Positions 2,939 to 43,653 of a DNA stretch of 64,000 nt are shown piece after piece. How positions within the stretch are numbered: the first letter of the stretch is position 1; every line of letters starts with the position of its first letter. This DNA is from a virus. A program made the position numbers and the translations under genes. The stretch lies in the IMG/VR virus record IMGVR_UViG_3300017917_004441, positions 1 to 64,000 of that record. One strand, written 5' to 3'. The notes under the pieces were generated by a model. That model did not search any database and was not told the origin of the DNA. It saw only the letters and a program-made list of their open reading frames with translations.

Positions 2939-2969
2939 TTTTTATTGAGAAAACCCGAATATATATAAT

Positions 2970-19137: not shown

Positions 19138-19180
19138 AGTTTTTTTCTAATAATAATAAATCTAAACAAAGTTGTATAGA

Positions 19181-20182: not shown

Positions 20183-20187
20183 GTATT

Positions 20188-20781: not shown

Positions 20782-20782
20782 T

Positions 20783-22826: not shown

Positions 22827-22827
22827 T

Positions 22828-24662: not shown

Positions 24663-25200
24663 GTTCTTTTTTATTTATAGTTTCTACTTCCGATAGGTGA
24701 ACCCACTTGCCAGCAACCACAGGTGTCAATACGGCTTGACCAATTTTTTGACCTTTGTTGATTTCCACAGGTGTTGCGTTTGTATTGAAGATAATAACTT
24801 TGATTTCACCATCATATCCTTGATCCACGGTACCAGGACTGTTGAGAACCATAAGTCCTTGATTAATTGCCAAACCACTTTTACTTCTTACTTGGATTTC
24901 ATATCCTTCGGGTATATCAAATTTCAAACCAGTTGGGACTAATGATCTTCCAAAACCTGTGATCTTTACATCAGTGGTACTGTATAGGTCAAATCCTGAG
25001 TCTGACGAATAGTTGTATTTCGGATCAATTGCATTTTCCGAGATCTTTGTAAATTTCAATGGAATTTGATGATCTCCACTCATAATTGCTTCATCCATTT
25101 CTTGAATAGGAAGACCATCAAGTTCTTCCTCAAAAACTTCTTCTTCCAAGTTCTTGAGTAACAATTCTAAGTTTCTTGCTAATTCCTCGTTAGTTGACAT
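24628..25200 (-). CDS. dut: Trimeric dUTPase
   Basis: SGFDL, RSKSGLA, NSPGTVDQGYDGEI, KIGQ, RGDNGFGSTG. Confidence 0.95.
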   Translation of the reverse strand: MSTNEELARNLELLLKNLEEEVFEEELDGLPIQEMDEAIMSGDHQIPLKFTKISENAIDPKYNYSSDSGFDLYSTTDVKITGFGRSLVPTGLKFDIPEGYEIQVRSKSGLAINQGLMVLNSPGTVDQGYDGEIKVIIFNTNATPVEINKGQKIGQAVLTPVVAGKWVHLSEVETINKKERGDNGFGSTGI

Positions 25201-25901
25201 TATTGTAGTTCTTTGAATTTTTTTATTACTTCTATTAGTACCAAGACATCTCGTTCACAATATTCTACGATTAAATCAAGTTGATCGTAATCATAAAATG
25301 CTTCGTGTACACGGTTTCCAGTGACTTCACCTTCTTTTGGGGATGGAACACCCATAGCAGCACACATAAGTTCTAATGATGCTAAACCATAATTGTTACC
25401 CATTCTCCAAATATCTAAGGTGTCAACCGCTTTGATCTCCCAAGGTTTAGTATCGTAGTTGGGTAATAGTGGTGATGGTTTGATTCCGTTGATAACCATA
25501 CGTTTGAGTAACATAGGAATATCAAACATCTTGATGTTATGACCACACAACCAAAAATCCATTTTGAAAACCTTGTTCATCAATTCATTCACATCTCTTA
25601 AGAGTTTTTTTTCATCTTTGTCGGAGAATGTCTGTTTGTGAACTTTACCATCAGGAGTAACAAAAGCAAAACTGGCACAAACAATTCTTGAGAATTCAGG
25701 AACCAAAGCAGCTCTGTTCACAAATATTTGTTCGGGTGGTAAATCCTTATCTTCAGGAAAGCGTTTGATGAACCAATCAAAATAGTTTAAAAATTGCTTT
25801 TTCAATTCAGGGTATTCTTTCCCCAATTGTTCATAATCTTTAACAATTCCGATTGTCTCTAAATCAAAAAAGAGAATCTTGCTGATTTGTGGTTGGATCA
25901 T
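25200..25901 (-). CDS. DEDDy 3'-5' exonuclease (PolB-exo-like, stand-alone)
   Basis: FFDLET, GHNIKMFD, YCERDV. Confidence 0.85.
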   Translation of the reverse strand: MIQPQISKILFFDLETIGIVKDYEQLGKEYPELKKQFLNYFDWFIKRFPEDKDLPPEQIFVNRAALVPEFSRIVCASFAFVTPDGKVHKQTFSDKDEKKLLRDVNELMNKVFKMDFWLCGHNIKMFDIPMLLKRMVINGIKPSPLLPNYDTKPWEIKAVDTLDIWRMGNNYGLASLELMCAAMGVPSPKEGEVTGNRVHEAFYDYDQLDLIVEYCERDVLVLIEVIKKFKELQ

Positions 25902-27112
25902 TTTACTAAAGATTTATAATATTCAGCTCGTGCTTTGGTTACAATATTCAAATCGTAGATTGGTGCGACCGTTTCATAAAGTCGTTCACCTAAGTCCTGT
26001 GCAAAAGATGGGTTGTCAATTAGTTTTTTAGCGTACTTGAACCAATCCGAGTGGTTTCTACCTTCTTTTACCAACAAAGCGTTACCATCGGTGAAATTAC
26101 CATTATCCAAGGAGTGTTTCAAATCAATAGTGTAAGGACCCAAATCAGAAGCAATCAAAGCTTTTTTATAAAAACCAGCCTCAATAACTTTGAGTTGTGA
26201 TTTTACTCTGTTGAAAATGTGGTTCTTGATTGGTGCCATTGATACGTCAAACTTGGAGTAGTTTTTAGCATAACTTTGAATCGGACGTGTCCAAACTCTG
26301 TGATAAAATTCATCAGAGAATTGTGAATCATCAATCTCTTTGAATTGTAGCAAGTGATCTTTATACTCGGGTGAAATCAAAGAATACTTGTTGGTAAAAA
26401 TTGTTTCGTATTTGTACCAAACAGTCTCCAATGGTTGAATTGGGCGTTGTTTTTGTTCACCTGTTCTCTGATTGATTTCAGTTACAGTACCTCTAAGGTC
26501 AAATCCACACAGAAAAACCTGTGCCTTATCCTTCAGTGGGTGGATTTTGGAAAATAGGTTATCCAAAATCATAAGGTCGTGCAAGTGTGAAGAACCACCA
26601 AGCCACCCGAATCTTAATTTATCTGATTGTTGTGTTGGTTCTTTGAACTGTGGTTCATCAGGGTTGATAGCGTTTGGAAATACCTCAACATTTTTATTGT
26701 ATTTCTTAATTTCCTGAGCAAATATTGAAGTTGTGGTGGTAACATGTTGTACGTTTTTGATGTTTCGTACGATTTTCTCATGTAGTTTGTTATTCATGAT
26801 AAGGTCATGAATTGGGTGTTCTTTACCAGGTAACCAATAGTCGTCCAAATCCATTATAGTTATAATACCCATGGATTTCAGTTTGGATAAAAGACCCTCA
26901 ACTAACTCGTAGTTGGTACCAATAGTTCTGTGAAAATGTACTATTTGGTAACCTTTCCATAAATCATCATCATTTATATTGATATCATACATAATATCAA
27001 CGTGAAAATCATCTGGATATAGGTTCTGTAGGAATACGTGTGGATCTAATGATCTAAATTTACCCACACCTGTTCTATCGGAGGGTAATACCAATACTTT
27101 AATTTTGGACAT
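25898..27112 (-). CDS. Glycosyltransferase, GT-B/GT4-like
   Basis: DLDDYW, FGWLGGSSH, FNRVKSQLKVIEAG, IASD..PY. Confidence 0.8.
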   Translation of the reverse strand: MSKIKVLVLPSDRTGVGKFRSLDPHVFLQNLYPDDFHVDIMYDININDDDLWKGYQIVHFHRTIGTNYELVEGLLSKLKSMGIITIMDLDDYWLPGKEHPIHDLIMNNKLHEKIVRNIKNVQHVTTTTSIFAQEIKKYNKNVEVFPNAINPDEPQFKEPTQQSDKLRFGWLGGSSHLHDLMILDNLFSKIHPLKDKAQVFLCGFDLRGTVTEINQRTGEQKQRPIQPLETVWYKYETIFTNKYSLISPEYKDHLLQFKEIDDSQFSDEFYHRVWTRPIQSYAKNYSKFDVSMAPIKNHIFNRVKSQLKVIEAGFYKKALIASDLGPYTIDLKHSLDNGNFTDGNALLVKEGRNHSDWFKYAKKLIDNPSFAQDLGERLYETVAPIYDLNIVTKARAEYYKSLVK

Positions 27113-29741: not shown

Positions 29742-32700
29742 ATGGCATATCAGAACATCAACCAATACGTCTATAACAAGTGGTATCTAAAACCAGTACA
29801 AGAAGTTTCTGACCTTAGTTTGGCATCGGATGAGAGACAATATAATGAGGAAGTTGTCTTTTCACCAAACCTAATAGGTGAGTTTAATGGTGATGTAATG
29901 CCAATCAAGATTGATCTAAATTTTTCAGGATCAAACCAGGGATTTGTGTTGAATTATCAGAATTATAATCAACAAAACATTCTTATTTCAGAAAATTACT
30001 TCAATCCACTTGATCCTAATTTGGATTGTTATTCCTCAAGAACGATATGTGATATAGGACTGACAGGAACTGACAATGGACTTTTAGAGTGTATGAGTGG
30101 TCAAAGTATTGAGTACACCATGGGTCTTCTACCTGATTCTCAGAAATTTGACAGGTACAAGTATGACCGAAGATTCAAGATGTTCCAAGTCACTGGGCAC
30201 ACATGGTCCCCAAACCACAGATTTTCAGGGGTCACTGCCGGTACTTTGTACAATATTGTATCGTACAACTCACAACAAATAGGACAATACCACGAGTTAT
30301 ACGGTGGTTTTTATCAAGGTTTTTACAAACTATTTGGATACGACTATGAGGTATTACCGACAAGATATCCTAAAGGTTGGACTGTTGAAATGACTTTGAA
30401 ACCAAGACTTGGTAACATATATACACCTCAATCTGGTCAGACTACACTAAACGACTACTATCCCGATAATGCAGGTATTTTCTTTTACATGGGTACTCGT
30501 GCTGAAAACAAATTTTGGCACGACGCAAATGGTAAAAATTTTGGTGATCCAAATTATGTAAGAGTCACGGAATCACTTACAGGGTTAAGTTCTTGTATGT
30601 GTGAAATCCTTAATTCAGGATATACAACAACCTCGTACACCAACATTCCAATTAGAGTTTCAGGGGCAACAATTATAGTTGAACCAAATCTTTTATGGCA
30701 AGCGGGTGATGACGTTTTAGTTTATCATGATTTGTTACAATATATTGAGGGTGTGGTTGAAAGTTATGATCCTGTAGGAGGTCAACTCAAATTTGTTTCA
30801 ACAAAAAATGTTGGTGAAGGTAATTTTCCATATTGGAGAGTTGACAAACCAAACTATTTGGAATATGCCGAATCTTATTGTGTTAAGGTTTACCCTGAAA
30901 CAGGTTACACAAGTGGTAATAGTATAACTTATTGTAGTTGTTGCGTTCCTCCACCTCCAACACCAAAACCAGAACACAATCCTTTATTGGATTCTATGTC
31001 TAATGCCTTAGCCATCAAGTTTAGTGGGGATCCTGCCAATCCAAAAATTTGTGTCAGAACTCTTACCTTCACTGGTGACTGTGCAACAACAGGTGCGTGT
31101 GAAACAATTGGATTTGAAAGTCAGACGGGTTATTCAATAAATAATTACTGTTCTACAAGAGGGATTTATGATGATTGTTTGGGTACCGAATATTTTGGTA
31201 AAGAACATTGGGTTCTCATTGATGCGGTTTTTGAACGATATACTTGGTTGGATTTTTGTGATCTTTATTACCGAGGTGGTTTAGGTGTCATATCTAATTT
31301 GGTGTATACTGCAACTACCGCAAACAATTCAGTATCTCTTATACAACCACCTCTAACCCATAATCAAACTATTCCTGTACAAGAGGAAATTGTTGAACTG
31401 AATTACGATTGGTTACTTGAGGAGTTCTACAGACGTGGTAAATTGAAGTTATACGTAAACGGTAGACATTTTGAGACTTTTGATAATTTTGAAGAAATTA
31501 TTCCAAGAGGACTCTATGGACACAAAGAAACACAAGTTGGTGTACCGTTCAACATATCTTGGGGTGGGGGTACTCAAGGATTACACGAAAACCTAATATT
31601 TTCAGCCATTCCTCAAACATTTTGTGGTGAATATATTCAGGATCCCGAACTATTTCCTGATAATATTCTCAGTGGTACATCGGTGAGTGGATTAACCACA
31701 AATATTCTTTTGGAAAAATACTTTGCAGGTACTTTTGATGGTGGAATATCAACATTCCACATGTATTCTAAGCCACTTTCGGTACCTGAAATACAACACA
31801 ATGCCAGATTGTTATACAATGTATATGACCTTTTGAATCCATATTGTTTGGATTGTAATATAATTGATAATTGTGACTTAGATTGGGAATTTATTGAGGT
31901 TACCAACACACCAACTCCAACAACAAATCCGACCCAAACGCCGACACCAACTCAAACAGTTACACCGTCAGCAACTTTATTACCAAGTCTTTGTCTTTAT
32001 ACCCAATTGTTTGAAACAACTCCTCAAACTCTGCCACCAAGTGGGTATATAAATTCAAGACCTTATTATGTTTATACCGATAGTATTTGTGGAAATGTCT
32101 ATAAGATTTTCTATGATGGGACACAATGGATAACTGAAAATTTCTTTGACAACACAATTTGTGCTACTTTGAATTATCAGGGTTTATATCCTGATACAAA
32201 TTTTGCCTCTTGGGTAATAACTACAGGACTTCCATTGTGTGAATGTGATTGGGTTAGAACCACAACATATCCAGTACCGTGTACAACACCACCACCTACA
32301 CCAACACCTTCAACAACAGCTGGTTGTTGTGAAAGCGTTGAATTCACTCTTCCAGATGACATATGTAGTATGGAGATACTTTATTTGGATTGTGACAATA
32401 ATCTTCAAACAACAGTAATTTCAGGGACAACACCGGTCACTATTTGTATGAAAAACGTGTATTCCAACTTTGAAATATTATCTACTGATTGTCTATCTTA
32501 CGATATTCTTGAACTCGGTAATTGTGATTGTGGGTTGGTACCTACACCAACACCAACTTTGACACAAAGTGTAACACCAACCCAAAGTATTACACCAACG
32601 ATAACCTCAACACCATCTTTGACTCCAACTCAAACACCCTCACCAACATCAGATCCTTGTTGTAGAACTCACGAGGTCAACGTGTTGAGTGGGTCTTGTA

Positions 32701-33590
32701 CTGGTGCAACGATTACTTACGTAGATTGTGATGATGATACTCAAACAATTTCACTTGTGTTGGGTTCAAGCACCCTGATATGTGCTCGTCCAAATTCAAT
32801 TACTCTAGTACCATCAGAAACATCATGTGATATTGAAATAATTGAAACTATAAACTGTGATTGTACCATTCCTGAAACACCAACACCAACTCCAACACCT
32901 ACTATAACAAGTACGGTAACTCCGACTATAACGTTGACTCAGACTCCATCTACAACACCTGATTTTACGCCAACACAAACACCAACCACTACGGTAACAC
33001 CATCAGCAACACCACCGTGTTGTTCAACATATAATTTGTATTCAATGGTACCTGAAACTTACACAATTGTCAATTGCGACGGTACTGTTGATGTTGTTAG
33101 TCATCCGGCATTTTATGCGTTCACAGTATGTGCTTTGAGCGTTACACCATTACAAGGTTACATCTTCCCTGAGTGTGAATGTTGTCTAACTGTTACAGGA
33201 ACATCAATTACCGCAAATGTTTTGGATATTCCGAATGCTAGCTCATATTCACGAGGAAGTGCGACTGTTGGATATTGGAATGGTTCATCATTATTCAATC
33301 CTACTGGTAGTGCCACTAAAGCAACAGGAAATACTTTAGTTACTGTTGGTGGTGATTTAGGTAATGATGATAACTGTCAGAGAGGTGCTATTGAGGTTAC
33401 TGCATTTGTTCCAAGTAGTATTGCTGGAGCGACAGGTTATAGAACACAAATTACAATCACTAAGAATTCTTTACCGATTGGAGTTGTAACAAGTGGACCT
33501 AACCCTACGGGAAGTAACGTGACTCAAACTTTTGATTTTGATAGAAACAACAACGATGTGATTAACGTACAATTCAATAGTATTTTATAA
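29742..33590 (+). CDS. Large virion protein: LamG/ConA-like N-region, Pro/Thr linkers, repeated Cys-rich modules
   Basis: WTVEMTL, LKLYVNG, FDGGISTFHMYSKPLS..EI..N (LamG-like); PT repeats; CC...DCD...IC modules. Confidence 0.75.
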   Translation: MAYQNINQYVYNKWYLKPVQEVSDLSLASDERQYNEEVVFSPNLIGEFNGDVMPIKIDLNFSGSNQGFVLNYQNYNQQNILISENYFNPLDPNLDCYSSRTICDIGLTGTDNGLLECMSGQSIEYTMGLLPDSQKFDRYKYDRRFKMFQVTGHTWSPNHRFSGVTAGTLYNIVSYNSQQIGQYHELYGGFYQGFYKLFGYDYEVLPTRYPKGWTVEMTLKPRLGNIYTPQSGQTTLNDYYPDNAGIFFYMGTRAENKFWHDANGKNFGDPNYVRVTESLTGLSSCMCEILNSGYTTTSYTNIPIRVSGATIIVEPNLLWQAGDDVLVYHDLLQYIEGVVESYDPVGGQLKFVSTKNVGEGNFPYWRVDKPNYLEYAESYCVKVYPETGYTSGNSITYCSCCVPPPPTPKPEHNPLLDSMSNALAIKFSGDPANPKICVRTLTFTGDCATTGACETIGFESQTGYSINNYCSTRGIYDDCLGTEYFGKEHWVLIDAVFERYTWLDFCDLYYRGGLGVISNLVYTATTANNSVSLIQPPLTHNQTIPVQEEIVELNYDWLLEEFYRRGKLKLYVNGRHFETFDNFEEIIPRGLYGHKETQVGVPFNISWGGGTQGLHENLIFSAIPQTFCGEYIQDPELFPDNILSGTSVSGLTTNILLEKYFAGTFDGGISTFHMYSKPLSVPEIQHNARLLYNVYDLLNPYCLDCNIIDNCDLDWEFIEVTNTPTPTTNPTQTPTPTQTVTPSATLLPSLCLYTQLFETTPQTLPPSGYINSRPYYVYTDSICGNVYKIFYDGTQWITENFFDNTICATLNYQGLYPDTNFASWVITTGLPLCECDWVRTTTYPVPCTTPPPTPTPSTTAGCCESVEFTLPDDICSMEILYLDCDNNLQTTVISGTTPVTICMKNVYSNFEILSTDCLSYDILELGNCDCGLVPTPTPTLTQSVTPTQSITPTITSTPSLTPTQTPSPTSDPCCRTHEVNVLSGSCTGATITYVDCDDDTQTISLVLGSSTLICARPNSITLVPSETSCDIEIIETINCDCTIPETPTPTPTPTITSTVTPTITLTQTPSTTPDFTPTQTPTTTVTPSATPPCCSTYNLYSMVPETYTIVNCDGTVDVVSHPAFYAFTVCALSVTPLQGYIFPECECCLTVTGTSITANVLDIPNASSYSRGSATVGYWNGSSLFNPTGSATKATGNTLVTVGGDLGNDDNCQRGAIEVTAFVPSSIAGATGYRTQITITKNSLPIGVVTSGPNPTGSNVTQTFDFDRNNNDVINVQFNSIL

Positions 33591-33591
33591 T

Positions 33592-36500
33592 ATGAGTCAA
33601 TTAGGTATTATAATCAGTAGCGATAACTTCAGCGGACAAACAGGTAGTGTTTTATATAAAAACACCCAAAACCAAGTAATTAGTTTGGGTGATCAAACTT
33701 TACCTTTTGTTTACTCACCTGCCGACGGTGAAGTTCAAGGGTTTTATTTTATATACTTTTCTGCCTCAAGTGAAACATGTGTTGTATTGGTTGATTCACC
33801 TGATCCCACACCAACTCAGACACCAACACCGACAGTAACACCATCGCCAAGTCCTGATTCAGGAATAGTTTATGCTTACATCGGACCAGGTTCCGTTGTG
33901 ATAGATTATGTGGTTGTGTTGGAAAAGGTTGTACCTGGTGACGTATCGTTCGGTTTATCACAACAATTATTTTTTGAACCGAATACAAGTGAATTTATTG
34001 TCACCAACTTTGATTTATTGTCAGGTGCAACTTCTGGTACAACACAAGAAACTTTATCTGAAAAAGATTTCAATCTTATAAAAAGGAATACAAACTTTAC
34101 CTTCTTTGATAAAAACCCAAGTGGTATTATTTTACAAGCCACTCCAATTTTTGCATCAGCAACTCCAACTGTAACACCAAGTCCTACACCTACTCTGACC
34201 CCAACTATTTCAGAGACTCCGACACAGACTCCAACACCTACTATAACAGAGACTCCCACTGTTACTCCAACGGCTACTCTCACGGAGACACCAACCCCGA
34301 CAGCAACGCTTACGCCAACACCAACAATTACCGAAAGTTTAACTCCAACAGTAACTCCTACTGAAACTCCTACTCCTACTGTAACACCAAGCCCAACTCA
34401 GTCTGAAACTCCAACTCAAACACCTACGAATACACCTACTCAAACTCCGACTGAGACACCTACGCCAACTATTTCAGAAACTCCAACACTTACTCCGACA
34501 CCAACAATTTCTGAAACTCCTACTCAGACTCCAACTGAAACTCCTACTAATACACCCACGACAACCCCTACTCCTACTGAATGGTGTATTTTTGAAGATT
34601 GTTATCAATCTTTGATAGTTACATTCACAGCAGAAACTTCAATCGGTGGATATTACTGTACTCCAACTGGACCTGAATATTACTCTACAATTATAAGTGA
34701 AGCAACATATCCGGCAACACAAACATTGACCGCAGAATTTTGTTTTTCAGGTGGAACTTGGAGCGAGCTCTCAGGTAGTTCTATTACATCTTTAACTTAT
34801 AGTGGTAGTTGTTGTAATATAACTCCAACACCTACACCGACTATTTCAGAAACACCAACTCAGACACCTACACCATCGGTGACTGAGACACCTACGCAGA
34901 CCCCTACTCCAACAATTTCAGAAACTCCTACACAAACTCCGACACCGACTATTACTGAAACACCAACAGTTACGCCAACGGCAACATTGACTGAAACTCC
35001 AACACCAACGTCAACTTTGACTCCAACTGTTACCCCGACACAAACTTTGACACCTACTCAAACTGAAACGCCAACCTTGACCCCTACGCCTACTATAACT
35101 GAATCACAAACTCCAACACCAACAATTTCTGAAACGCCAACTCAAACTCCAACACCTTCATCAACAGAAGGAGTTTTCTTGGCACAAGAATCATTGGAGG
35201 GTGGTATACATCCTTTGATTCTACAAGAAGATAACTTCAAGATTATTGTAGAGTTGCCAACTTCAACTCCGACGCCAACTATCACTACAACACCAACAGT
35301 TACACCAACAAATACAATTACGCCAACTACAACTGTAACACCAACATTTACACCCACAAGTACGATTACTCCGACCATCACACCAACAACAGCTCCTATT
35401 ACGTCAGGTCTTATTATAGAACTTGATGCATATAATAGTTCAAGTTATCCTGGTACTGGTACTACAGTTGTAAACTTACAATCACCGGGAACATATAACC
35501 ATACACTGACAAACGCACCTTACACCGAACTAAACACAATAAAATGTTTTGATTGTAATGGTGGTGTCAACACTTTTGTAAGAGTAAATGGTACTGGTCC
35601 TACCTTACCAACGTCGGGATATACCTACATTACTTGGGCGAGAGTAAGAACAAGTTCAGCCGATTATAGAACATTGTTTAGAACTGCACCGAATGACCAC
35701 CCAATATTAGTGGATGTTGCTACTGATAACTTAGGTTTTTATGATAATGATACACCAGCGTTCTTTGATTCGGGGTACGATGTAACCCCTGTTGAGGATG
35801 TTTGGGTACAGTACACCGTGGTCGGAGATAATGTAAGTAGTATATTTTACATAAATGGTACGCAAGTTGGAACAACCGCAAAAGGTGCGGGTGGAAATAG
35901 ACATGATTATTGGGGTTCAATTCCAGGTCAACCATTCGGTTATGTTGCAAACATGTATTACTACAATAGAAAGTTGTCGTTATCTGAAATCCAACAACAA
36001 TATACTTTCTTAGCACCGAGATTCATTGAACCATCACCAACTCCAACGACAACACCTACCTCAACAGTAACTCCGACTTTGACTACAACACCAACTCCGA
36101 CGTCAACTCCCGCAGTCCCTGTCACAAGTAATTTAATTTTATATTATGATCCAAGTAACCCATCAAGTTATTCGGGAAGTGGTACAGCCCTAAATGATTT
36201 GTCGGGAAATGGGTTAAACGGTTCCATGTCCAACATAACATTTACATCACCATACTTTTCATATAACGGAAGTTCTTCACAAGTCACAAGATTGGATAAC
36301 GTGCTATTAGAACCAGGTGCTGGTGATTGGACCATGGAGGTTTGGGTAAACCAAACAAATGCCACTGGTAGTCAGGTGATTTTAGGTAAATTTGACCCAG
36401 GTGGTGGGTCTCAAGATGTCTCTTACGCCATTCGTGTTATTGGGGGAAATGTTAGAGCTGACTTTGGGAATGGATCAACAGCAATGAGTACTGCAAACTA

Positions 36501-36786
36501 TTTGATCACAACTGGTACTTCTTATCAATTAGTATATGTGTTCAATAACGTTGCAAATAATAATGTAATCACATATGTAAATGGGATACAAGTTGCCACA
36601 ACGACACACAGTTTTGCCAGTATATTGAACACCACAACAGCACTTTACTTGGGTAGTTACAATGGTGGAGAATATTCACAATGGTTCAATGGTAAAATTG
36701 GAATCACAAGACTTTATAACGCAGCACTGACTTCATCCCAAGTCTTACAAAACTATAATGCCAATAAATCCAAATATGGATTATAA
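33592..36786 (+). CDS. Mucin-like Pro/Thr-repeat virion protein with two LamG/ConA-like lectin domains
   Basis: Several hundred residues of TPTPTISETPT repeats; two domains beginning LDA..SSYPGTG / YDP..SSYSGSG and ending YNRKLS / YNAALT. Confidence 0.85.
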   Translation: MSQLGIIISSDNFSGQTGSVLYKNTQNQVISLGDQTLPFVYSPADGEVQGFYFIYFSASSETCVVLVDSPDPTPTQTPTPTVTPSPSPDSGIVYAYIGPGSVVIDYVVVLEKVVPGDVSFGLSQQLFFEPNTSEFIVTNFDLLSGATSGTTQETLSEKDFNLIKRNTNFTFFDKNPSGIILQATPIFASATPTVTPSPTPTLTPTISETPTQTPTPTITETPTVTPTATLTETPTPTATLTPTPTITESLTPTVTPTETPTPTVTPSPTQSETPTQTPTNTPTQTPTETPTPTISETPTLTPTPTISETPTQTPTETPTNTPTTTPTPTEWCIFEDCYQSLIVTFTAETSIGGYYCTPTGPEYYSTIISEATYPATQTLTAEFCFSGGTWSELSGSSITSLTYSGSCCNITPTPTPTISETPTQTPTPSVTETPTQTPTPTISETPTQTPTPTITETPTVTPTATLTETPTPTSTLTPTVTPTQTLTPTQTETPTLTPTPTITESQTPTPTISETPTQTPTPSSTEGVFLAQESLEGGIHPLILQEDNFKIIVELPTSTPTPTITTTPTVTPTNTITPTTTVTPTFTPTSTITPTITPTTAPITSGLIIELDAYNSSSYPGTGTTVVNLQSPGTYNHTLTNAPYTELNTIKCFDCNGGVNTFVRVNGTGPTLPTSGYTYITWARVRTSSADYRTLFRTAPNDHPILVDVATDNLGFYDNDTPAFFDSGYDVTPVEDVWVQYTVVGDNVSSIFYINGTQVGTTAKGAGGNRHDYWGSIPGQPFGYVANMYYYNRKLSLSEIQQQYTFLAPRFIEPSPTPTTTPTSTVTPTLTTTPTPTSTPAVPVTSNLILYYDPSNPSSYSGSGTALNDLSGNGLNGSMSNITFTSPYFSYNGSSSQVTRLDNVLLEPGAGDWTMEVWVNQTNATGSQVILGKFDPGGGSQDVSYAIRVIGGNVRADFGNGSTAMSTANYLITTGTSYQLVYVFNNVANNNVITYVNGIQVATTTHSFASILNTTTALYLGSYNGGEYSQWFNGKIGITRLYNAALTSSQVLQNYNANKSKYGL

Positions 36787-36807
36787 ACAACATATTTATA
36801 AAATAAA

Positions 36808-37395
36808 ATGCCAAATTTACCCATATCCCAATTACCAAATATTTCAGGTTCAACTTTAGGTTATCTTGGACCTGACGGAGAGTTTGCCGTTGCACAGGAC
36901 GGTGTAACTTACAAGGCTAAATTATCACAAATTCACCCATCAGGATTTTGGGGTAGTTTTGTTTCGTTAGAAAACCAGTATGTTACAAGCACAACTACGG
37001 CCTACTCTATGACAGCAGATACACAAACCTCAGGTAACGGTGTAATTGTTTCTGCGGATACAAGATTTGTAGTTGAATATGCTGGAACTTATAATGTACA
37101 GTTCTCGAGTCAAATTGAATCAACAGGTGGTGGTAATGCACAAACTATGGATATTTGGTTGGCAATAAATGGTGACAATGTACCATATAGTAATACCCAA
37201 GTTGTTGGTAATTCAAATAACGGAAGGAGTGTTGCTGCTTGGAATTTTGTAGAACCGATGAATGCTGGTGACTATTTTGAAATAAAATTCAGAGTAAGTG
37301 ATATACGTTTAGGTTTTGCATACGACGCAGGTCCTTTTATTAACCCACCGAGACCCGACATACCTTCGGTGATTGTCACAGTAACACAGGTCTAA
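36808..37395 (+). CDS. Fibre-tip protein with C1q/BclA-C-like domain
   Basis: N-terminal PISQLP; AGTYNVQFS...IWLAING...AGDYFE; late motif at 36793-36800. Confidence 0.65.
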   Translation: MPNLPISQLPNISGSTLGYLGPDGEFAVAQDGVTYKAKLSQIHPSGFWGSFVSLENQYVTSTTTAYSMTADTQTSGNGVIVSADTRFVVEYAGTYNVQFSSQIESTGGGNAQTMDIWLAINGDNVPYSNTQVVGNSNNGRSVAAWNFVEPMNAGDYFEIKFRVSDIRLGFAYDAGPFINPPRPDIPSVIVTVTQV

Positions 37396-37463
37396 ACAAA
37401 TATTTTGTATCTTGTTTTTTTTCGACTTCAATAAATTTACTAAAATATAGAAAATGTAATTCT

Positions 37464-37492
37464 AACCCTCCACTTTTACAGAGGGTTTTTTA
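37464..37492 (+). terminator. Probable intrinsic terminator
   Basis: AACCCTC-N10-GAGGGTT followed by T-tract. Confidence 0.6.
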
Positions 37493-37513
37493 TTTTAGTA
37501 AAAAACTGTTTTT

Positions 37514-38761
37514 ATGAAGATATTTGTGCAAATTGCATCTTATAGGGATCCACAACTTATCCCAACAATCAAGAACATGTTGGAAAATGCAAAAAGACCA
37601 AAAAATTTGAGAATTGGTATTGCAAGACAATTCCACCCTGAAGATAAATTTGACGATCTATCAGAATTTGAAAATGACAACAGATTCAGAATCTTAAACA
37701 TTCCATATCAAGAGGCTGAAGGCGTATGTTGGGCAAGAAACTTAGTTCAACAACTTTATCAGGGTGAGGAATATACACTACAGATTGATTCTCACATGAG
37801 ATTTGCACCCAATTGGGATGACGAAATGATTAAGATGATCAAACAACTTCAGAAGAAAGGACATGCTAAACCATTGTTGACAGGATACGTATCATCATTT
37901 GATCCCGATAACGACCCACAGGGTAGAGTTCAGGAACCTTGGAGAATGGTTTTTGATAGATTTATTCCCGAAGGTGCGGTGTTTTTCCTACCTGAAACTA
38001 TACCTGGTTGGAGAGATATGAAACAACCTGTACCCGCGAGATTCTATTCAGCTCACTACGCTTTTACATTAGGACAGTTCTCAACAGAAGTTCAACACAA
38101 TCCTGAATACTATTTCCACGGTGAAGAAATTTCTATTTCAGCAAGAGCTTACACATGGGGATATGATTTATTTCACCCACATAAGGTTTTGATTTGGCAC
38201 GAATACACTAGAAAAGGTAGAACCAAACAATGGGATGATGATAAAAAGTGGGTTGATAGAAATAACAAATCACACTTGATGAACAGAAAGTTGTTTGGTA
38301 TGGATGGTTTAGAACAAGAAGGACATGATGGACTTTATGGATTTGGACCTGAAAGAACTCTACGTGACTATGAAAAGTATGCAGGTCTGTTGTTTGAAAA
38401 AAGGGCGGTACAACAATATACCTTAGATAAGAACTATCCACCTAACCCTTACAATTACGAGAGCGAAGAAGAATGGAAAAAGAATTTTGCTTCAGTATTC
38501 AAACATTGTATTGATATCAATTACAGTTCCGTACCTGAAAAGGATTACGAGTTTTGGGTTGTTGCATTCCACGGACCTAACGATGAAACATTGTTCAGAA
38601 AGGATGCGGACAAGAATGAAATCCAACGTATCATGAACGATCCAGATGGGTATGGTAAAGTTTGGAGAGAATTCCAAACAGAATCTAAACCAACTTATTG
38701 GGTTGTATGGCCATACTCAACATCTAAGGGATGGTGTGAGAGAATTACAGGAAACTTATAA
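37514..38761 (+). CDS. GT60-like polypeptide GlcNAc-transferase (Skp1 Gnt1 / trypanosome mucin GlcNAcT-type)
   Basis: IFVQIASYRD, GVCWAR, LQIDSHMRF...WD, FHGEE, YTWGYDLF.P...WHEY.R. Confidence 0.85.
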   Translation: MKIFVQIASYRDPQLIPTIKNMLENAKRPKNLRIGIARQFHPEDKFDDLSEFENDNRFRILNIPYQEAEGVCWARNLVQQLYQGEEYTLQIDSHMRFAPNWDDEMIKMIKQLQKKGHAKPLLTGYVSSFDPDNDPQGRVQEPWRMVFDRFIPEGAVFFLPETIPGWRDMKQPVPARFYSAHYAFTLGQFSTEVQHNPEYYFHGEEISISARAYTWGYDLFHPHKVLIWHEYTRKGRTKQWDDDKKWVDRNNKSHLMNRKLFGMDGLEQEGHDGLYGFGPERTLRDYEKYAGLLFEKRAVQQYTLDKNYPPNPYNYESEEEWKKNFASVFKHCIDINYSSVPEKDYEFWVVAFHGPNDETLFRKDADKNEIQRIMNDPDGYGKVWREFQTESKPTYWVVWPYSTSKGWCERITGNL

Positions 38762-38763
38762 AA

Positions 38764-39474
38764 ATGGTTACATTTGATGGTAAAAAAATTGCGGACATTG
38801 GTTATTTTATCAATTTGGATGAAAGAACCGATAGACGTGAAAAGTTAGAATCACAACTTACTAAATTTAACATTCAGGGTGTAGAAAGGGTCTCAGCAAA
38901 TAAAACTACCGATTCAGGACCAACAAACTGTAAAAGAAGTCACTTTGACTTGTTACAGAAATTAGTTGATTCAGAACATGAGACCTTATTGGTTTTGGAG
39001 GATGATTGTTTGTTTTTGGATTTTCTATTGGAAGAATCTGATGAAATTTTTGATAACATCAACAAAACTCAATGGGATCTATTTTGGTTGGGTTGTAGAA
39101 ACAGAAGAACTCCCTTACTGAAAGAAAATAATTGTTATACGGTTTCTTCAGTTTCCCACGCACAGTCTTATTTGATCAAAAAAGATTTTGCTAAACACAT
39201 CTTGGAAAGATATCCAATATACCCCCACGATAATCATAACAACGTTCCGATTGATGAATTGTTGACTCTGTGTGTTTATGGATACGATGTTGTTGCCAAT
39301 CCAAATAGTGTGAATTTTTACAATTTAGATCAACCTTTGGATGTTCTACCAACACATTACACCGCACTTTGTTATGAGAAGTCTCTAACGACCCAATACT
39401 CCTCATATAGTAATCTTTGGCATTACGAAACCCATTGGGAGGAGTATATAATCAAATCGTTCCCTAAGTGGTAA
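38764..39474 (+). CDS. GT25 glycosyltransferase (Lex2/COLGALT family)
   Basis: YFINLDERTDRR, CKRSH, LVLEDD, AQSYLI, PID. Confidence 0.85.
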   Translation: MVTFDGKKIADIGYFINLDERTDRREKLESQLTKFNIQGVERVSANKTTDSGPTNCKRSHFDLLQKLVDSEHETLLVLEDDCLFLDFLLEESDEIFDNINKTQWDLFWLGCRNRRTPLLKENNCYTVSSVSHAQSYLIKKDFAKHILERYPIYPHDNHNNVPIDELLTLCVYGYDVVANPNSVNFYNLDQPLDVLPTHYTALCYEKSLTTQYSSYSNLWHYETHWEEYIIKSFPKW

Positions 39475-39477
39475 AGT

Positions 39478-40215
39478 ATGAAATTAGTTAGTGTTACTTG
39501 GTCTTATGGAGATGAATCTAATGTGAAGGATACTATCCTTTATAAAAGTTTTATCAAACACAATGATGAGAGTGATTTTGTGAATATTCACTTCAACAGA
39601 TCAAAATATGCGGAATTGGAAAGTGAATTTCAATCTAAATTCGGATATCAATATGAGTTTCTATTGTATAGAATCTTTTTATTATCAGATTGGGTAAAAT
39701 TGATAGATGATGATGTTCTGATTTTTTCTGATACCACTGATGTTGTTTGTCTTGGTAAGTTGAGTGACATTGAATTTAATGGCGGTATTGTTTTCTCAGC
39801 CGAGAGACATCAATATCCAAATGACATTTCAAGTTGGGGACCAGTCAATCGTTACCCACAGGAGAATTTGGATAAGTCTAACTTCCTAAATGCGGGTCTT
39901 CAGATCTCTGAAAAAGGTTTATATTTGGAACTTCTAAGGTCTGTCATTGAGAACGTATTTCCTTTGGAATACAAAACATTTGGTGGTGATCAAGGTGTTT
40001 ATATCTACTATCTTATCAATGAAATTTCACCAAAAATTACTTTAGATATAGACCGTAAAGTGTTTGTTAGTACTTATCTAACAAGCCCTGATTGGTATAG
40101 AGTAGAGAATGAGAAATTATTATATAATCCCACAAACTCACACCCACTTTTTGTTCATGATAATGGTTGGAATTATGGAAGTCCTAAAATAATTGAGAGA
40201 TATAGATTGATATGA
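39478..40215 (+). CDS. PLOD/LH3 N-terminal glycosyltransferase-like domain protein
   Basis: IFSDTTDVV, VFSAE...YP, FLNAG, GDQG, LDID..VF, LFVHDNG. Confidence 0.75.
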   Translation: MKLVSVTWSYGDESNVKDTILYKSFIKHNDESDFVNIHFNRSKYAELESEFQSKFGYQYEFLLYRIFLLSDWVKLIDDDVLIFSDTTDVVCLGKLSDIEFNGGIVFSAERHQYPNDISSWGPVNRYPQENLDKSNFLNAGLQISEKGLYLELLRSVIENVFPLEYKTFGGDQGVYIYYLINEISPKITLDIDRKVFVSTYLTSPDWYRVENEKLLYNPTNSHPLFVHDNGWNYGSPKIIERYRLI

Positions 40216-40943
40216 AAAATGCTATAATTTCCACCTATTATTGTCTTGGTTGTCAAGAACCCTCAAAGGATGAATGTAGATCACGATTTGCATATGATGT
40301 TGATGATAACGACTTCTATTTGAACTTCAGTAATGATTTCAATCCGTTTGATTTTTCCAACATATCTAATGTTGGTGTGAGTAAACGGAAGGATCTTGTA
40401 TTCGGTAAGATATTCCGATTGAAAACTTTTATGGAAGAAAATATCTTGGGTAAGTACGATAATATTCTTCACATAGACTATTCAGATACGAAGTTTGCAA
40501 GGAGTAGTACGGAGTTGTTTGAGGACTTTATCAAGACAGGTAAAGATATTGTTATATCAACCGAAAAAAACTGTTGGCCATATCTTCACGCAGTATCAAA
40601 CTGGTTTGGCACTGAATTACCTCAGAAAGAATTTTTCTATGTAAATTCAGGAGCCGTTATATCCAAGACAGAAAAGTTTTACGAAATAATAAAAGAACTT
40701 GAATGGATATGTTTGAATTCTAACATAGACTTTTGGGACGACCAAGGTGTTTGGCAATATTACAACATAAAAGAAAATAACCTCAGTAAGGACCTCAACT
40801 CAGAATATTTCTTTTCAACCGCTGAGTTGGATGAGACTTACTATAAATTTGAAGACGGAGTTATCACTACAAAGTTCGGTACTCAACCTTACTTGATTCA
40901 TGATAATTCAAGTTTTTCACTAAACCTAATAAGAAAAATTTAA
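40212..40943 (+). CDS. Second PLOD/LH3 glycosyltransferase-like domain protein
   Basis: HIDYSD, ISTEKNCWP, YVNSGAVI, DDQGVW, KDLNSEYF, LIHDN. Confidence 0.75.
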   Translation: MKNAIISTYYCLGCQEPSKDECRSRFAYDVDDNDFYLNFSNDFNPFDFSNISNVGVSKRKDLVFGKIFRLKTFMEENILGKYDNILHIDYSDTKFARSSTELFEDFIKTGKDIVISTEKNCWPYLHAVSNWFGTELPQKEFFYVNSGAVISKTEKFYEIIKELEWICLNSNIDFWDDQGVWQYYNIKENNLSKDLNSEYFFSTAELDETYYKFEDGVITTKFGTQPYLIHDNSSFSLNLIRKI

Positions 40944-40944
40944 G

Positions 40945-41553
40945 ATGAGTGTTTCGGGACATTTTGTTTATAAGGGATTGACTATCATGCAACATCCCAA
41001 CGTAGAGAAAGCTTTTGAGGAGCTTTTGATTGATCTAAAACCAACAAAAGTGTTGGAAATCGGTACTTCATCAGGAGGACTTACCCTGATGATTAGAGAC
41101 ATTTTGGATAGAGTTGGTCTATCAGAAACTCGTTTGGTTACCTATGACGTGTATGAACCACAATATCTGAGATATCATGTAAATGATGGTGCAAATATTG
41201 AAATCAAAGTAGAAAACGTATTCAATCACCAATATTCTGACTTGGAGAACGGTCAAGAAATAATTGATTTCATTACTTCAGAGGGAACAACTTTGGTTTT
41301 GTGTGATGGTGGAAGTAAGAAAAACGAATTCAGAATCTTGTCCAACTTCTTGAAAGTCGGTGATGTAATTATGGCTCACGACTATTCTCCTAACGAACCA
41401 TATTTTAGAGAGTTTGTTCATGACACTATTTGGAGTTGGTTGGAAATCCAAGACAGTGATATTGAAGCACCCTGTCAACTCAATAATTTGGAAGGATACT
41501 TTGAAGAAACGTTTAAGAATGTCGTATGGGCATGTAGAAAAAAAATGAAATAA
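40945..41553 (+). CDS. SAM methyltransferase (CmcI/Methyltransf_24-like)
   Basis: VLEIGTSSGGLT, LCDGG, GDVIMAHDY. Confidence 0.75.
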   Translation: MSVSGHFVYKGLTIMQHPNVEKAFEELLIDLKPTKVLEIGTSSGGLTLMIRDILDRVGLSETRLVTYDVYEPQYLRYHVNDGANIEIKVENVFNHQYSDLENGQEIIDFITSEGTTLVLCDGGSKKNEFRILSNFLKVGDVIMAHDYSPNEPYFREFVHDTIWSWLEIQDSDIEAPCQLNNLEGYFEETFKNVVWACRKKMK

Positions 41554-41554
41554 A

Positions 41555-43225
41555 ATGAAAGTTACTTTTGTTACAGGTCTTTGGAATATAAAACGTGATA
41601 CCTTAGGTGAAGGTTGGTCAAGGTCATTTGAACATTATTTACAGAAGTTTGAACAACTGTTACAGGCGGATGTGAACTTAATAATTTTCGGTGAAAGTGA
41701 TTTAGAAGAATTCGTTTGGAATCGTCGCAGCCGAGAGAACACTCAATTTATCGTAAGAGATCAAAGTTGGTTCAAATCGGAGTTTTATGACAAGATTCAA
41801 TCCATAAGGACTAACCCTGATTGGTACGGACAAGTAGGATGGTTATCCGAATCAACACAAGCAAAACTTGAGATGTATAATCCTTTGGTGATGTCCAAAG
41901 TGTACTTACTACATGATGCGAAGTTGATGGATCAATTCAATTCTGACTATATGTTTTGGATTGATGCTGGTCTAACTAACACGGTACACCCAGGTTATTT
42001 CACTCACGATAAAGTGCAGGAAAAATTACCAAAGTATTTTGAAAAATTATCTTTCATTTGTTTTCCTTATGAAGCCAACACTGAGATACACGGATTCAAC
42101 TTTGCCAAAATAAATCAACTTGCCGGGTCAAAAGTGGATATGGTGGCTCGTGGTGGGTTTTTCGGAGGTCCAAAACACGCAATATCAGATCTCAACAGTC
42201 TCTATTACAACCTTATGAGTTCTACTTTGAACTCAAATTTGATGGGAACCGAGGAATCTTTGTTTACGATCCTGTGTTACAAACACCCTGATCTAATCAA
42301 TTATTTTGAAATTGAATATAATGGTTTGGTCGGTAAGTTTTTTGAAGATTTGAAAAACGAGACCTTGGTGAAAAAATCAAAAGCGCCCGTACAACCCAAA
42401 AATACAAATTTGGATACCAATAACACGGCATTGTATGTAATAACCTTCAATAGTCCAAAACAATTTGAAACATTGATCACTTCAATGTTGGAGTATGATG
42501 ATGATTTTATCAACAAACCAAAGAAATTTTTGCTGGATAATTCATCAGATCTCTCAACTACTGAAAAATATAAAGAACTTTGTGATCAACATGGGTTTGA
42601 ACATATCAAAAAGGATAATTTGGGAATTTGTGGAGGTAGACAATGGATTGCCGAACATGCTGATGAAAATAACTTTGATTTTTATTGGTTCTTTGAAGAT
42701 GATATGTTCTTTTACCCTAAAGAAGGTTCTGTATGTAAAAACGGATTCAATAGATATGTGAAGGGATTATATAAAATTTCTATAGAAATTGCCAAGAATA
42801 ATAACTTTGATTTCTTGAAGTTGAATTATACCGAATTCTTTGGTGATAACGGTACACAATGGTCTTGGTACAACGTTCCACAATCATTCAGGGAAACAAG
42901 ATGGCCCGAAAAGAGTCAATTACCTGTACACGGACAAGATCCAAATGCTCCGAGAACTCTGTTCAAGAACATCAGAAGTTATAAAGGTGTACCATTTATA
43001 AGTGGTGAAATTTATTACTGTAACTGGCCTCAGGTGGTCACCAAAGAGGGAAATGTAAAAATGTTTCTTACTGAGAAGTGGGCGCATCCATTTGAACAGA
43101 CTTGGATGAGTTACATGTATCAAGAAACAGTTGCGGGTAACTTGAACCCTGGTATGTTACTTATGACACCAACAGAACACGATAGATTTGAATTTTATGA
43201 TGGTAAATTGAGAAAAGAATCCTAA
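41555..43225 (+). CDS. HtrL/YibB-like domain fused to a GT-A-like domain
   Basis: TFVTGLWNIKR, RSFEHY, FWIDAG, GGFFGG, GTEE; C-domain DNS, NLGICGGR, FFEDDM. Confidence 0.7.
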   Translation: MKVTFVTGLWNIKRDTLGEGWSRSFEHYLQKFEQLLQADVNLIIFGESDLEEFVWNRRSRENTQFIVRDQSWFKSEFYDKIQSIRTNPDWYGQVGWLSESTQAKLEMYNPLVMSKVYLLHDAKLMDQFNSDYMFWIDAGLTNTVHPGYFTHDKVQEKLPKYFEKLSFICFPYEANTEIHGFNFAKINQLAGSKVDMVARGGFFGGPKHAISDLNSLYYNLMSSTLNSNLMGTEESLFTILCYKHPDLINYFEIEYNGLVGKFFEDLKNETLVKKSKAPVQPKNTNLDTNNTALYVITFNSPKQFETLITSMLEYDDDFINKPKKFLLDNSSDLSTTEKYKELCDQHGFEHIKKDNLGICGGRQWIAEHADENNFDFYWFFEDDMFFYPKEGSVCKNGFNRYVKGLYKISIEIAKNNNFDFLKLNYTEFFGDNGTQWSWYNVPQSFRETRWPEKSQLPVHGQDPNAPRTLFKNIRSYKGVPFISGEIYYCNWPQVVTKEGNVKMFLTEKWAHPFEQTWMSYMYQETVAGNLNPGMLLMTPTEHDRFEFYDGKLRKES

Positions 43226-43251: not shown

Positions 43252-43653
43252 ATGGATTTTTTCATCAAAAAAAATGCGACCTTACCTCTACTGAAGATGC
43301 AAGTAGTGCAAGACGGTAGAAGTGAGTATCAATCATTTATGGAATCGTTGGCAGATGCTACAATTTCATTCACTATGATAAATGAGGCGACAGGTATCCC
43401 CAAGATCGTTTCTAAACCCGCATACATTGTTGAACTCATCGGACTTGATCCAAATGCTTTACCCGAATATTACGTATATTACAGATTCACCAAAAGAGAT
43501 ACCAACACGGTTGGTAGGTATGTTGGTCAATTTTTGATCAAATACAATCAAGCATTGTTGGGTGGTCCACAAGGGGATTTGATAGTACCCCTAAGGGATG
43601 AACTTTTCATCAATATCCAAGAAAGTTTCATATCTGATTCACCCTGTTGTTGA
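43252..43653 (+). CDS. Small virion protein (BppU-N-like Ig fold, tentative)
   Basis: FFIKKNATLPLL...YYRF...DT..VGRYVGQF; late motif at 43230-43237. Confidence 0.5.
   Translation: MDFFIKKNATLPLLKMQVVQDGRSEYQSFMESLADATISFTMINEATGIPKIVSKPAYIVELIGLDPNALPEYYVYYRFTKRDTNTVGRYVGQFLIKYNQALLGGPQGDLIVPLRDELFINIQESFISDSPCC

Follow-up and report, generated by a model that had tools for sequence, protein, structure and literature searches.

What does a jumbo phage glycosylate when it carries, directly downstream of two giant Pro/Thr-repeat proteins, a compact row of six glycan-related genes? We asked this question for the first 64 kb (hereafter the window) of the 100,911-bp IMG/VR virus record IMGVR_UViG_3300017917_004441, which has a CheckV completeness of 34%. 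Genes for a tail sheath, a baseplate wedge, a helicase and a family-B DNA polymerase (PolB) identify it as part of a contractile-tailed jumbo phage; the source is an uncultured freshwater jumbo phage of a myophage lineage of roughly 300 kb, for which a near-complete relative is available (a contig of 294,914 bp, 98% complete). In this study, we believe that the cassette probably serves a phage-encoded, cytoplasmic, mucin-type O-glycosylation of the phage's own appendages with Pro-Thr (PT) tracts. Gene content, protein folds, synteny, turnover of the cassette and parallels in bacteria and cultured phages carry this reading, and from them we infer the acceptor, the sugar, the order of the steps and the location on the virion.

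Cassette enzymes and the Pro-Thr proteins beside them

An earlier sequence-only reading of this DNA had listed six tightly packed genes and a family for each product, and both points held. Neighbouring genes are separated by 1-3 nt or overlap by 4 nt (Table 1), every gene exceeds a Pfam gathering score, and a transmembrane (TM) segment was found in none of the six proteins. The first gene encodes a GT60-family glycosyltransferase (GT), which matches PF11397 at E 3e-69 (234.6 bits against a cut-off of 21; profile positions 2-44 and 95-351 of 352) and phrog_24687 at E 5e-169; a sequence search against the PDB gave no match at E up to 1. Its D92-S93-H94 is invariant in 17 phage sequences, including the cultured jumbo phages XacN1 and RAS14, down to 51% identity, and the DSH motif is also present in the pairwise alignment with XacN1. 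From what is known of GT27 and GT60, we take this motif to be a candidate DxH-type metal-binding site. Studies have shown that all characterised GT60 enzymes, which are from protists, glycosylate Thr/Ser or hydroxyproline (Hyp) of polypeptides (PMC8724618).

The GT25-family product matches PF01755 at E 4e-9 (37.2 bits, cut-off 24) over profile positions 68-196 of 199, with the N-terminal third unmatched and an EDD acidic motif present. The two PLOD/LH3-type products are stand-alone proteins of 243-245 aa that consist of the GT domain alone and have marginal Pfam scores. Protein b is a paralogue of protein a, with motifs common to both in the alignment, and on their sequences the two are PLOD-type GT-A domains and not LH3 orthologues. 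The methyltransferase matches RMNT_CmcI (PF04989, E 8e-6, 26.2 bits, cut-off 23.2), Methyltransf_24 slightly below its cut-off (PF13578, E 3e-5, 25.3 against 26.3 bits) and, far under the cut-off, an NCBIfam rhamnosyl O-methyltransferase (E 1e-4).

The last product, HtrL-GT, matches HtrL_YibB (PF09612, E 5e-20, 72.7 bits, cut-off 24.1). It reaches 73 bits against a cut-off of 264.9 for TIGR02192, the NCBIfam equivalog of E. coli YibB, and it is an HtrL-domain protein with an extra GT-A domain, not a YibB orthologue. Its second half has only sub-threshold sequence matches; the AlphaFold model (pLDDT 87) consists of two GT-A domains, and the proposed fusion was thereby confirmed by fold. The best Foldseek matches are the tandem GT-A enzymes LH3, COLGALT1, mimivirus R699, LARGE1, the chondroitin polymerase K4CP and the heparosan synthase PmHS2. 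On this modelled fold, HtrL-GT may act, in the manner of LARGE1 or K4CP, as a bifunctional polymerase that extends the GT60 primer with a repeating disaccharide.

The sub-threshold matches of HtrL-GT also bear on DNA hypermodification, in which some or all of the GTs would glycosylate hydroxymethylated bases of the phage genome and so evade restriction. The second domain is faintly like DNA glucosyltransferases (TAGT, E 1e-3, 19.2 bits against a cut-off of 27.5; phrog_842, the T-even beta-glucosyl-HMC alpha-glucosyltransferase, E 1e-5), the DNA polymerase gene adjoins the cassette, the window contains a dUTPase/dCTP-deaminase-like gene, and diverse GT arrays that act on phage DNA have been described (bioRxiv 10.1101/2023.12.21.572611). 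We nevertheless regard this explanation as very improbable. A ThyA-like hydroxymethylase was found neither in the record nor in the 98%-complete relative, which keeps GT60 and HtrL-GT; the argument is limited by ThyA-like genes in three other relatives, whose canonical status is not established. A Tet/JBP search in five relatives was also empty, and it is uninformative because the control genomes were silent too. Moreover, the GT60/HtrL-GT pair occurs in ordinary bacterial chromosomes beside PT proteins, and the DNA-glycosylation literature that we checked mentions neither GT60 nor HtrL.

Directly upstream of the cassette lie the candidate acceptors, which had been described as two Pro/Thr-repeat lectin proteins. 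PT arrays are present in both, and a LamG domain is present in the 1064-aa protein. This protein contains 235 Thr and 118 Pro, five PT arrays spanning 413 residues, and two ConA-like Laminin_G_3 domains (Pfam, E 7e-26); its LamG part matches phrog_8510 "virion structural protein" at E 7e-19. The PT arrays show 68-76% matches at the DNA level, and they are therefore not the result of recent slippage. The 1282-aa protein has an N-terminal part of ~715 aa, followed by Cys-rich modules of ~60 aa linked by four PT arrays (174 residues; aa 717-750, 836-867, 932-977 and 1038-1099). Neither a Pfam match nor a TM segment was found in it, and homologues of its N-terminal part, with 38-90% identity, occur in most related loci whose upstream flank is included.

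A lectin domain in the 1282-aa protein was dropped: Pfam was empty, the BLASTP alignment with the 1064-aa protein is confined to the PT linkers, hhalign against the LamG domain of this neighbour gave a probability of 90% over just 33 columns, and the leads of an Atlas search were below 0.9. Its aa 750-1110 (window 31900-33100) hold three or four Cys-rich modules of ~60-70 aa with the pattern CC...C...C...C..CDC, for which no family match was found. These modules may be disulfide-stabilised binding modules that oxidise only after lysis.

The 195-aa ORF had been read as a C1q-like fibre protein, which proved right at the level of the predicted fold. No Pfam family (C1q included) matches it, the PDB sequence search returned chance matches to RNase Sa, and it has no family at the sequence level. 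The AlphaFold model built with 40 homologues (pLDDT 86) has an all-beta head that Foldseek matches, at probability 1.0, to BxpB/ExsFA, the BclA C-terminal domain, C1q/TNF jelly-rolls and phage receptor-binding heads (target TM-scores 0.65-0.74 against BxpB, ExsFA, BclA and C1ql1), as expected of a C1q/TNF-like jelly-roll fibre head. Close relatives have collagen repeats ahead of the same head. The first 18 residues of the 195-aa protein match those of the 798-aa tail-fibre-like protein at 12/18 positions; in the latter, the collagen-like part consists of ~200 Gly-(Ser/Thr/Asn)-(Ser/Thr) triplets with many Asn-Gly-Thr motifs, and Pro and Lys are absent from this repeat. PT-array ORFs occur at three sites of the record: beside the collagen-like fibre (2970-4082), beside the cassette, and from 96546 to the end of the record, where the baseplate/fibre block ends.

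We propose that, during infection, the soluble GT60 would add the first sugar to the dense Thr (and Ser) of the phage PT arrays; by analogy with protist GT60, this sugar would be alpha-GlcNAc from UDP-GlcNAc. The likely acceptors would be, first, the two large proteins encoded upstream, and possibly others with PT arrays or collagen-like Ser/Thr repeats. The two-domain HtrL-GT would act in the pathway of GT60, and the middle genes (here GT25, two PLOD-type GTs and the methyltransferase) would extend and decorate the glycan. The glycosylated proteins would then be assembled into or onto the virion as fibre-like appendages.

Table 1. Positions of the features discussed, in window coordinates or, where a locus handle precedes them, in coordinates of that related or bacterial locus.
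Feature	Position	Strand	Remark
GT60-family (PF11397) soluble glycosyltransferase	37514..38761	+	proposed initiating polypeptide O-glycosyltransferase; conserved 5' flank
GT25-family glycosyltransferase	38764..39474	+	variable cassette member; proposed chain extender
PLOD/LH3-type GT-A protein a	39478..40215	+	PF25342, E 7e-7, 29.1 bits against a cut-off of 27; variable member
PLOD/LH3-type GT-A protein b	40212..40943	+	PF25342, E 3e-9, 36.8 bits against 27; variable member
SAM-methyltransferase, CmcI/rhamnosyl-O-methyltransferase type	40945..41553	+	one of two alternative genes just 5' of HtrL-GT
HtrL_YibB domain plus second GT-A domain (HtrL-GT)	41555..43225	+	conserved 3' flank; fixed partner of GT60
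133-aa ORF, function unassigned	43252..43653	+	always between HtrL-GT and family-B DNA polymerase
1282-aa fibre-like protein	29742..33590	+	candidate glycan acceptor
1064-aa mucin-like protein	33592..36786	+	five PT arrays, two Laminin_G_3; main candidate acceptor
195-aa fibre subunit	36808..37395	+	conserved N-terminal anchor motif; predicted C1q/TNF/BclA-type jelly-roll head
798-aa collagen-like Gly-Ser/Thr-Ser fibre	542-2938	+	49% Ser+Thr; further candidate acceptor
370-aa protein with PT arrays	2970-4082 (block 542..4082)	+	further candidate acceptor
Second sugar block	16502..27112	-	possible donor supply; nucleotide-metabolism genes interspersed
Split HldE-like kinase and nucleotidyltransferase	16502-19137 and 24243-24662	-	
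PolB-type 3'-5' exonuclease-like gene	25200-25901		stand-alone
Family-B DNA polymerase	43751-46594		
293-aa island protein	L019:12717-13595		example of the commonest island cluster
P4H-GT2 fusion	L084:283-2142	-	620 aa
HtrL-GT/GT60 fusions	L210:6204-11225, L213:6273-9503		neighbours L210:11384-16552, L213:9599-14767
Bacterial PT/PS-repeat proteins	L174:6944-7729, L187:6648-7625, L164:6000-7751, L158:6507-7649, L193:4819-5454, L202:9283-9831, L185:11414-12115		

A variable island between two fixed enzymes

The lineage has at least 407 GT60 relatives in IMG/VR, and the best 80 of them, with a GT60 identity of 77-95%, were surveyed; architectures were counted in the 75 loci with both flanks (GT60 and HtrL-GT). 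The order is constant in the 80 loci: a divergent 267-aa gene, PT-rich ORFs, GT60, a variable block, HtrL-GT, the 133-aa ORF and PolB. Of the loci that have the upstream flank, a single one lacks PT-rich ORFs directly 5' of GT60; these ORFs vary in number and size. The 133-aa ORF is 40-95% identical across nearly all related loci and has no family match.

The block from GT60 to HtrL-GT measures 0.8-9.3 kb in the surveyed loci, and in the 98%-complete relative the island is 17.5 kb long with 21 genes, including Fringe, GT61, GT10 and GT11. Across the 75 loci, the island contains 245 ORFs in 69 clusters and 30 architectures, with GT60 and HtrL-GT fixed; five architectures are found among loci with a GT60 identity of 91% or more to the window enzyme. 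Clusters with a Pfam match mostly fall in families that build or decorate glycans, for example FkbM, TylF and MT24 methyltransferases, GT25, PLOD, GT10/GT11 fucosyltransferases, GT2, GT7 and RXYLT1, and the further families are Fringe, GT61, sulfotransferases, carbamoyltransferases, DegT aminotransferases, acetyltransferases and nucleotide-sugar enzymes. The commonest cluster, a 293-aa protein without a Pfam match, is present in 46 loci and absent from the window. It alternates with the methyltransferase (cluster 2, found in 15 loci) in the slot just 5' of HtrL-GT.

The set of the window (GT25, two PLOD-type GTs and methyltransferase) recurs in only three other loci. Near-identical copies of its GT25 (92%) were found only in L004 and L066, followed by L003 (71%), and relatives of 25-36% identity are frequent in other cassettes; homologues of PLOD-type protein a (64-75% identity) occur in only 3 of the 80 loci. 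These genes are one of 30 interchangeable cassette versions and do not make up a fixed pathway. A fixed collagen-type (GT25 plus LH3) pathway was also rejected: besides the rarity of the gene set, no PF13640-type (prolyl-hydroxylase-like) oxygenase was found in the 101-kb record (the PLOD hydroxylase family itself was not searched), and the collagen-like repeat lacks Lys. The island looks like an O-antigen-style hypervariable region held by two fixed enzymes. As close relatives have their middle genes swapped, the glycans would differ from one related phage to the next.

Hydroxylation may have a place elsewhere in the lineage. The near-complete relative (G001) encodes, at about 289 kb, a fusion of a P4H-type 2OG-Fe(II) oxygenase (PF13640, E 2e-18) with a GT2, next to a second GT2 gene. 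The full-length fusion occurs in ~7 IMG/VR contigs, and its GT2 half has relatives of 45-56% identity on contigs labelled as giant-virus metagenome-assembled genomes (MAGs). This architecture is typical for glycosylation of protein hydroxy-amino acids. The fusion suggests that some phages of the lineage may convert Pro to Hyp and glycosylate it, as on Skp1 or plant hydroxyproline-rich glycoproteins. The 101 kb of the present record contain no oxygenase of this type, and the Hyp route is therefore speculative for the phage of the window.

The lineage may be a candidate match to the aquatic "moraphages", which reach up to 307 kb, are predicted to infect Bacteroidota and have a core set of four GT orthogroups (PMC12619734). 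The nearest cultured relatives of its family-B polymerase are from Salinibacter and Nostoc/Anabaena phages, at just 23-27% identity, and the stand-alone PolB-type exonuclease-like gene (PF10108, E 1e-11) lies ~18 kb from the polymerase gene. A scan of 28500-47500 for sigma-70 promoters and terminators gave fewer sites than shuffled sequences and is uninformative on operons and timing.

The GT60/HtrL-GT pair in bacteria and cultured phages

One genome per prokaryotic species was scanned, and 73 loci with GT60 relatives (30-73% identity) were found. An HtrL-GT homologue lies within 8 kb of GT60 in 22 of the 41 bacterial loci of at least 12 kb, and it is almost the sole other protein common to the bacterial loci and the phage. 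In two MAGs, the enzymes form single polypeptides, HtrL-GT with GT60 (1,076 aa) and HtrL-GT with two GT60 units (1,673 aa). Both fusions adjoin Thr-rich exoproteins of 1,722 aa whose N-terminus is of the TpsA/ESPR type, and one locus (L213) also has a probable TpsB-sized partner. The label "eukaryote-like" given earlier to the cassette is too narrow, since the core GT60/HtrL-GT module is widespread in bacteria, and a eukaryotic or giant-virus origin is therefore unneeded.

Seven bacterial loci have a PT/PS-repeat protein of 183-584 aa with a twin-arginine-like start, 59-2544 bp from GT60. They come from the isolate JN14-9 of Jiulongibacter sediminis (PT protein of 262 aa), Arcticibacterium, Lewinellaceae, Saprospiraceae, Congregibacter, an Ectothiorhodospiraceae MAG and a Verrucomicrobia MAG, and thus span Bacteroidota, Gammaproteobacteria and Verrucomicrobiota. 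The Congregibacter copy ends in a PEP-CTERM-like helix, and two Bacteroidota copies carry a T9SS-type C-terminal domain. A pattern coding for TPTPTPTP occurs once in the 4.5-Mb Jiulongibacter genome and a five-unit (S/T-P) pattern once in the 4.2-Mb Congregibacter MAG, in both cases inside the ORF next to GT60; in the 6.8-Mb Verrucomicrobia MAG, the five-unit pattern occurs at three sites, one of which is the GT60 neighbour. By a rough estimate, the chance of each such coincidence is well under 0.01. A Tat signal on a PT protein beside soluble GTs would fit glycosylation before export, and it suggests that bacteria use Tat to export mucin-like surface proteins glycosylated in the cytoplasm. 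The pair is surrounded by unrelated housekeeping genes, and no polysaccharide export set (Wzx/Wzy, ABC exporter or priming transferase) was found around it. In Jiulongibacter and Arcticibacterium, a carbamoyltransferase lies between GT60 and HtrL-GT, as in XacN1.

Among 50,697 phage records searched with tblastn, GT60 (44-47% identity) and full-length HtrL-GT (40%) were found only in XacN1, Xoo-sp13, CM1 and RAS14; the HtrL-GT of the window is 40% identical to XacN1 ORF330. In the regions of XacN1 and RAS14 that we read, the pair flanks a carbamoyltransferase and converges on the end of the baseplate/fibre block, where a giant protein of the ORF325 type has a PT linker in both phages. In RsoM2USA, which has no match to GT60 or HtrL-GT, the homologue of the giant protein is without the PT linker, a single contrast. 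Yoshikawa et al. (2018) found at least two Schiff-stained glycoprotein bands in XacN1 virions and proposed ORF328 and ORF334 (the GT60 gene) as the makers of these glycoproteins (PMC5852040).

GT60 and HtrL-GT stand beside PT-repeat secreted proteins in bacteria of three phyla; therefore, the phage most likely sugar-coats its own appendages. PT tracts as acceptor of the GT60 pathway, as claimed before, have strong comparative support in the conserved or fused pair, the bacterial PT neighbours and the XacN1 bands, from which we infer the acceptor itself. For a wider claim, we see about even chances: GT60 and the tandem-GT-A HtrL-GT would form a self-contained prokaryotic system for cytoplasmic mucin-type glycosylation of PT arrays, which bacteria use on Tat-exported surface proteins and TpsA adhesins and which jumbo phages captured to make a strain-variable fibre glycocalyx.

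The bacterial loci also bring in host-protein glycosylation, where GT60 and HtrL-GT derived from Bacteroidota would re-glycosylate the Tat-exported PT-repeat proteins of the host, perhaps masking a receptor, and the PT proteins of the phage would be unmodified linkers. The closest bacterial GT60s (62-73% identity) come from Saprospiraceae/Lewinellaceae MAGs, the two T9SS-type PT-repeat proteins stand beside the pair (L158, L164), and PT-tract recognition by the enzymes is expected under either reading. Set against this, in two distant clades of phages the enzymes are fixed next to PT-tract genes of the phage itself, XacN1 virions are positive in periodic acid-Schiff staining (PMC5852040), and a lytic jumbo phage would gain little from decorating host proteins that still await export. 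We consider this quite unlikely. As an observation in its own right, the closest cellular GT60 (62-73%) and HtrL-GT (48-67%) are on MAG contigs of Saprospiraceae, Lewinellaceae and Bacteroidia (L156-L164), that is, Saprospirales-type Bacteroidota; this closeness hints at the host group of the phage lineage or at recent gene exchange with that group.

A second sugar block lies on the minus strand and contains the split HldE-like kinase and nucleotidyltransferase (heptose-7-P kinase domain, E 3e-39; adenylyltransferase domain, E 2e-28), a cupin, an NAD epimerase/dehydratase, a Galactosyl_T-like ORF, a GT2_5 enzyme, a small HAD phosphatase and a PHROG glycosyltransferase. None of the NCBIfam scores in the block comes near its equivalog cut-off, and beside the HldE-like pair a GmhA-like isomerase was not seen. 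On these sequence matches, the pair together with the cupin, epimerase and HAD phosphatase could be a phage pathway for an NDP-heptose-type donor, and these genes may supply the donor for the glycosylation proposed above.

We know of no lipid- or polysaccharide-linked acceptor for GT60, a point that matters for the other use that such a block may have, namely remodelling of the host surface. The cassette and the HldE-like genes would then modify the core of host lipopolysaccharide (LPS) or lipooligosaccharide (LOS), or a lipid-linked glycan, and so block superinfection or change a receptor. The GT25, HtrL_YibB and HldE-like genes, together with a GT9-family gene near the XacN1 pair, belong to families best known from LPS/LOS core synthesis (PMC4172580), and the kinase, adenylyltransferase, epimerase and HAD phosphatase genes are present in the window. 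Iyer et al. (2021) read jumbo-phage clusters of PfkB, HIGH-nucleotidyltransferase, epimerase, cupin and GT genes as host-surface remodelling (PMC7824862), such a role has been proposed for the GT clusters of jumbo cyanophages, and the hypervariability of the cassette also fits diverse host O-antigens. Yet the bacterial pair adjoins PT-repeat secreted proteins and lacks the export genes named above, the cassette proteins are all without a TM segment, and glycoproteins are present in XacN1 virions (PMC5852040). On balance, we hold host-surface remodelling to be unlikely.

Several points weigh against glycosylation of the phage's own appendages. PT linkers are common as flexible spacers, and glycosylation is not required for this. 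The assignment of both large PT proteins to the virion rests on LamG/PHROG similarity and gene position, and within a single phage lineage the adjacency is inherited as one arrangement and does not count as a series of independent events. By motif, a PT-rich neighbour is present in only 12 of the 41 larger bacterial loci and in none of the Gemmatimonas loci. To these are added the LPS/LOS families just named, the faint likeness of HtrL-GT to DNA glucosyltransferases and the adjoining polymerase gene, and the proteins in the Schiff-stained XacN1 bands were never identified (PMC5852040).

Known glycosylation systems and significance

One of the closest known systems is that of protist GT60 (Dictyostelium Gnt1 on Skp1-Hyp, and the mucin-type initiators of Dictyostelium and T. 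cruzi), with which the window enzyme has PF11397 in common at a high score. The Dictyostelium PsA spacer is a PTVT repeat bearing O-GlcNAc. By sequence, the window GT60 resembles its protist counterparts in having DSH at the expected metal-site position and no ricin-type lectin domain. Gnt1 is cytoplasmic, and the window GT60 must be so too. The protist mucin-type enzymes initiate O-GlcNAc on Thr/Ser-rich arrays, and Gnt1 acts on Skp1-Hyp (PMC8724618). Unlike the protist enzymes, the window enzyme is prokaryotic/viral and without a membrane anchor, and protist GT60 pathways have no HtrL-type tandem GT, whereas this enzyme is always paired with one or fused to one.

Phages that glycosylate their own particles have been reported. 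For example, the mycobacteriophages Che8, Corndog and Myrna (Freeman et al., 2023) are reported by secondary sources to encode GTs that act in the cytoplasm and attach O-glycans to structural proteins of the phage itself, with GT genes that vary among relatives. The Che8-like phage WIVsmall has an HtrL/YibB-annotated gene near GTs (PMC10453261). The reported acceptors are C-terminal extensions of capsid or tail-tube subunits, in contrast to the long PT arrays of fibre-like proteins here. The tblastn search of the 50,697 phage records with GT60 or HtrL-GT returned no actinobacteriophage, and the Che8 proteins themselves were not compared directly.

Giant viruses (chlorovirus capsid; mimivirus fibrils, L230 and R699) likewise decorate virion proteins with virus-encoded soluble GTs and methyltransferases, without the host ER/Golgi. 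PLOD- and GT25-type domains are common to them and the cassette, and mimivirus R699 is among the top fold matches of HtrL-GT. The present system differs in that it belongs to a bacteriophage and has a GT60/HtrL-GT core common to bacteria. Unlike in the collagen-type system of mimivirus, no PF13640-type hydroxylase was found and the collagen-like repeat is without Lys.

Among bacterial systems, HMW1C/HMW1, Aah/TibC on AIDA-I/TibA, and BclA also have a soluble cytoplasmic GT encoded beside a secreted repetitive substrate, and the fused GT60/HtrL-GT beside TpsA-type exoproteins recalls the arrangement of HMW1 and HMW1C. The window further shares with these adhesin systems HldE-like genes of NDP-heptose type and a BclA-like fibre head. 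They differ in their enzymes (GT41-like HMW1C, BAHT), in their products (N-linked hexose or O-heptose on Ser) and in having no PT partner with a Tat signal.

In summary of what was known, virion glycosylation is reported for mycobacteriophages and has been suggested for XacN1, and giant viruses glycosylate their own particles. In the literature searched, we found no work on what GT60 or HtrL-GT does in prokaryotes or phages, and none on the module of PT protein, GT60 and HtrL-GT or on the hypervariable island.

If our reading is true, an abundant lineage of freshwater jumbo phages and the cultured jumbo phages of Xanthomonas and Stenotrophomonas would bear mucin-like glycans on their appendages, and shifts in glycan composition between close relatives would amount to phage "serotypes". 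This would have a bearing on adsorption, host range, resistance to proteases and grazing, sticking to mucus and particles, and immune recognition of therapeutic phages. GT60, hitherto studied only in protists, would gain a prokaryotic function, and bacteria would have a soluble cytoplasmic route to mucin-type O-glycoproteins, apparently tied to Tat or two-partner secretion. Such a system would also be useful for glycoengineering in E. coli.

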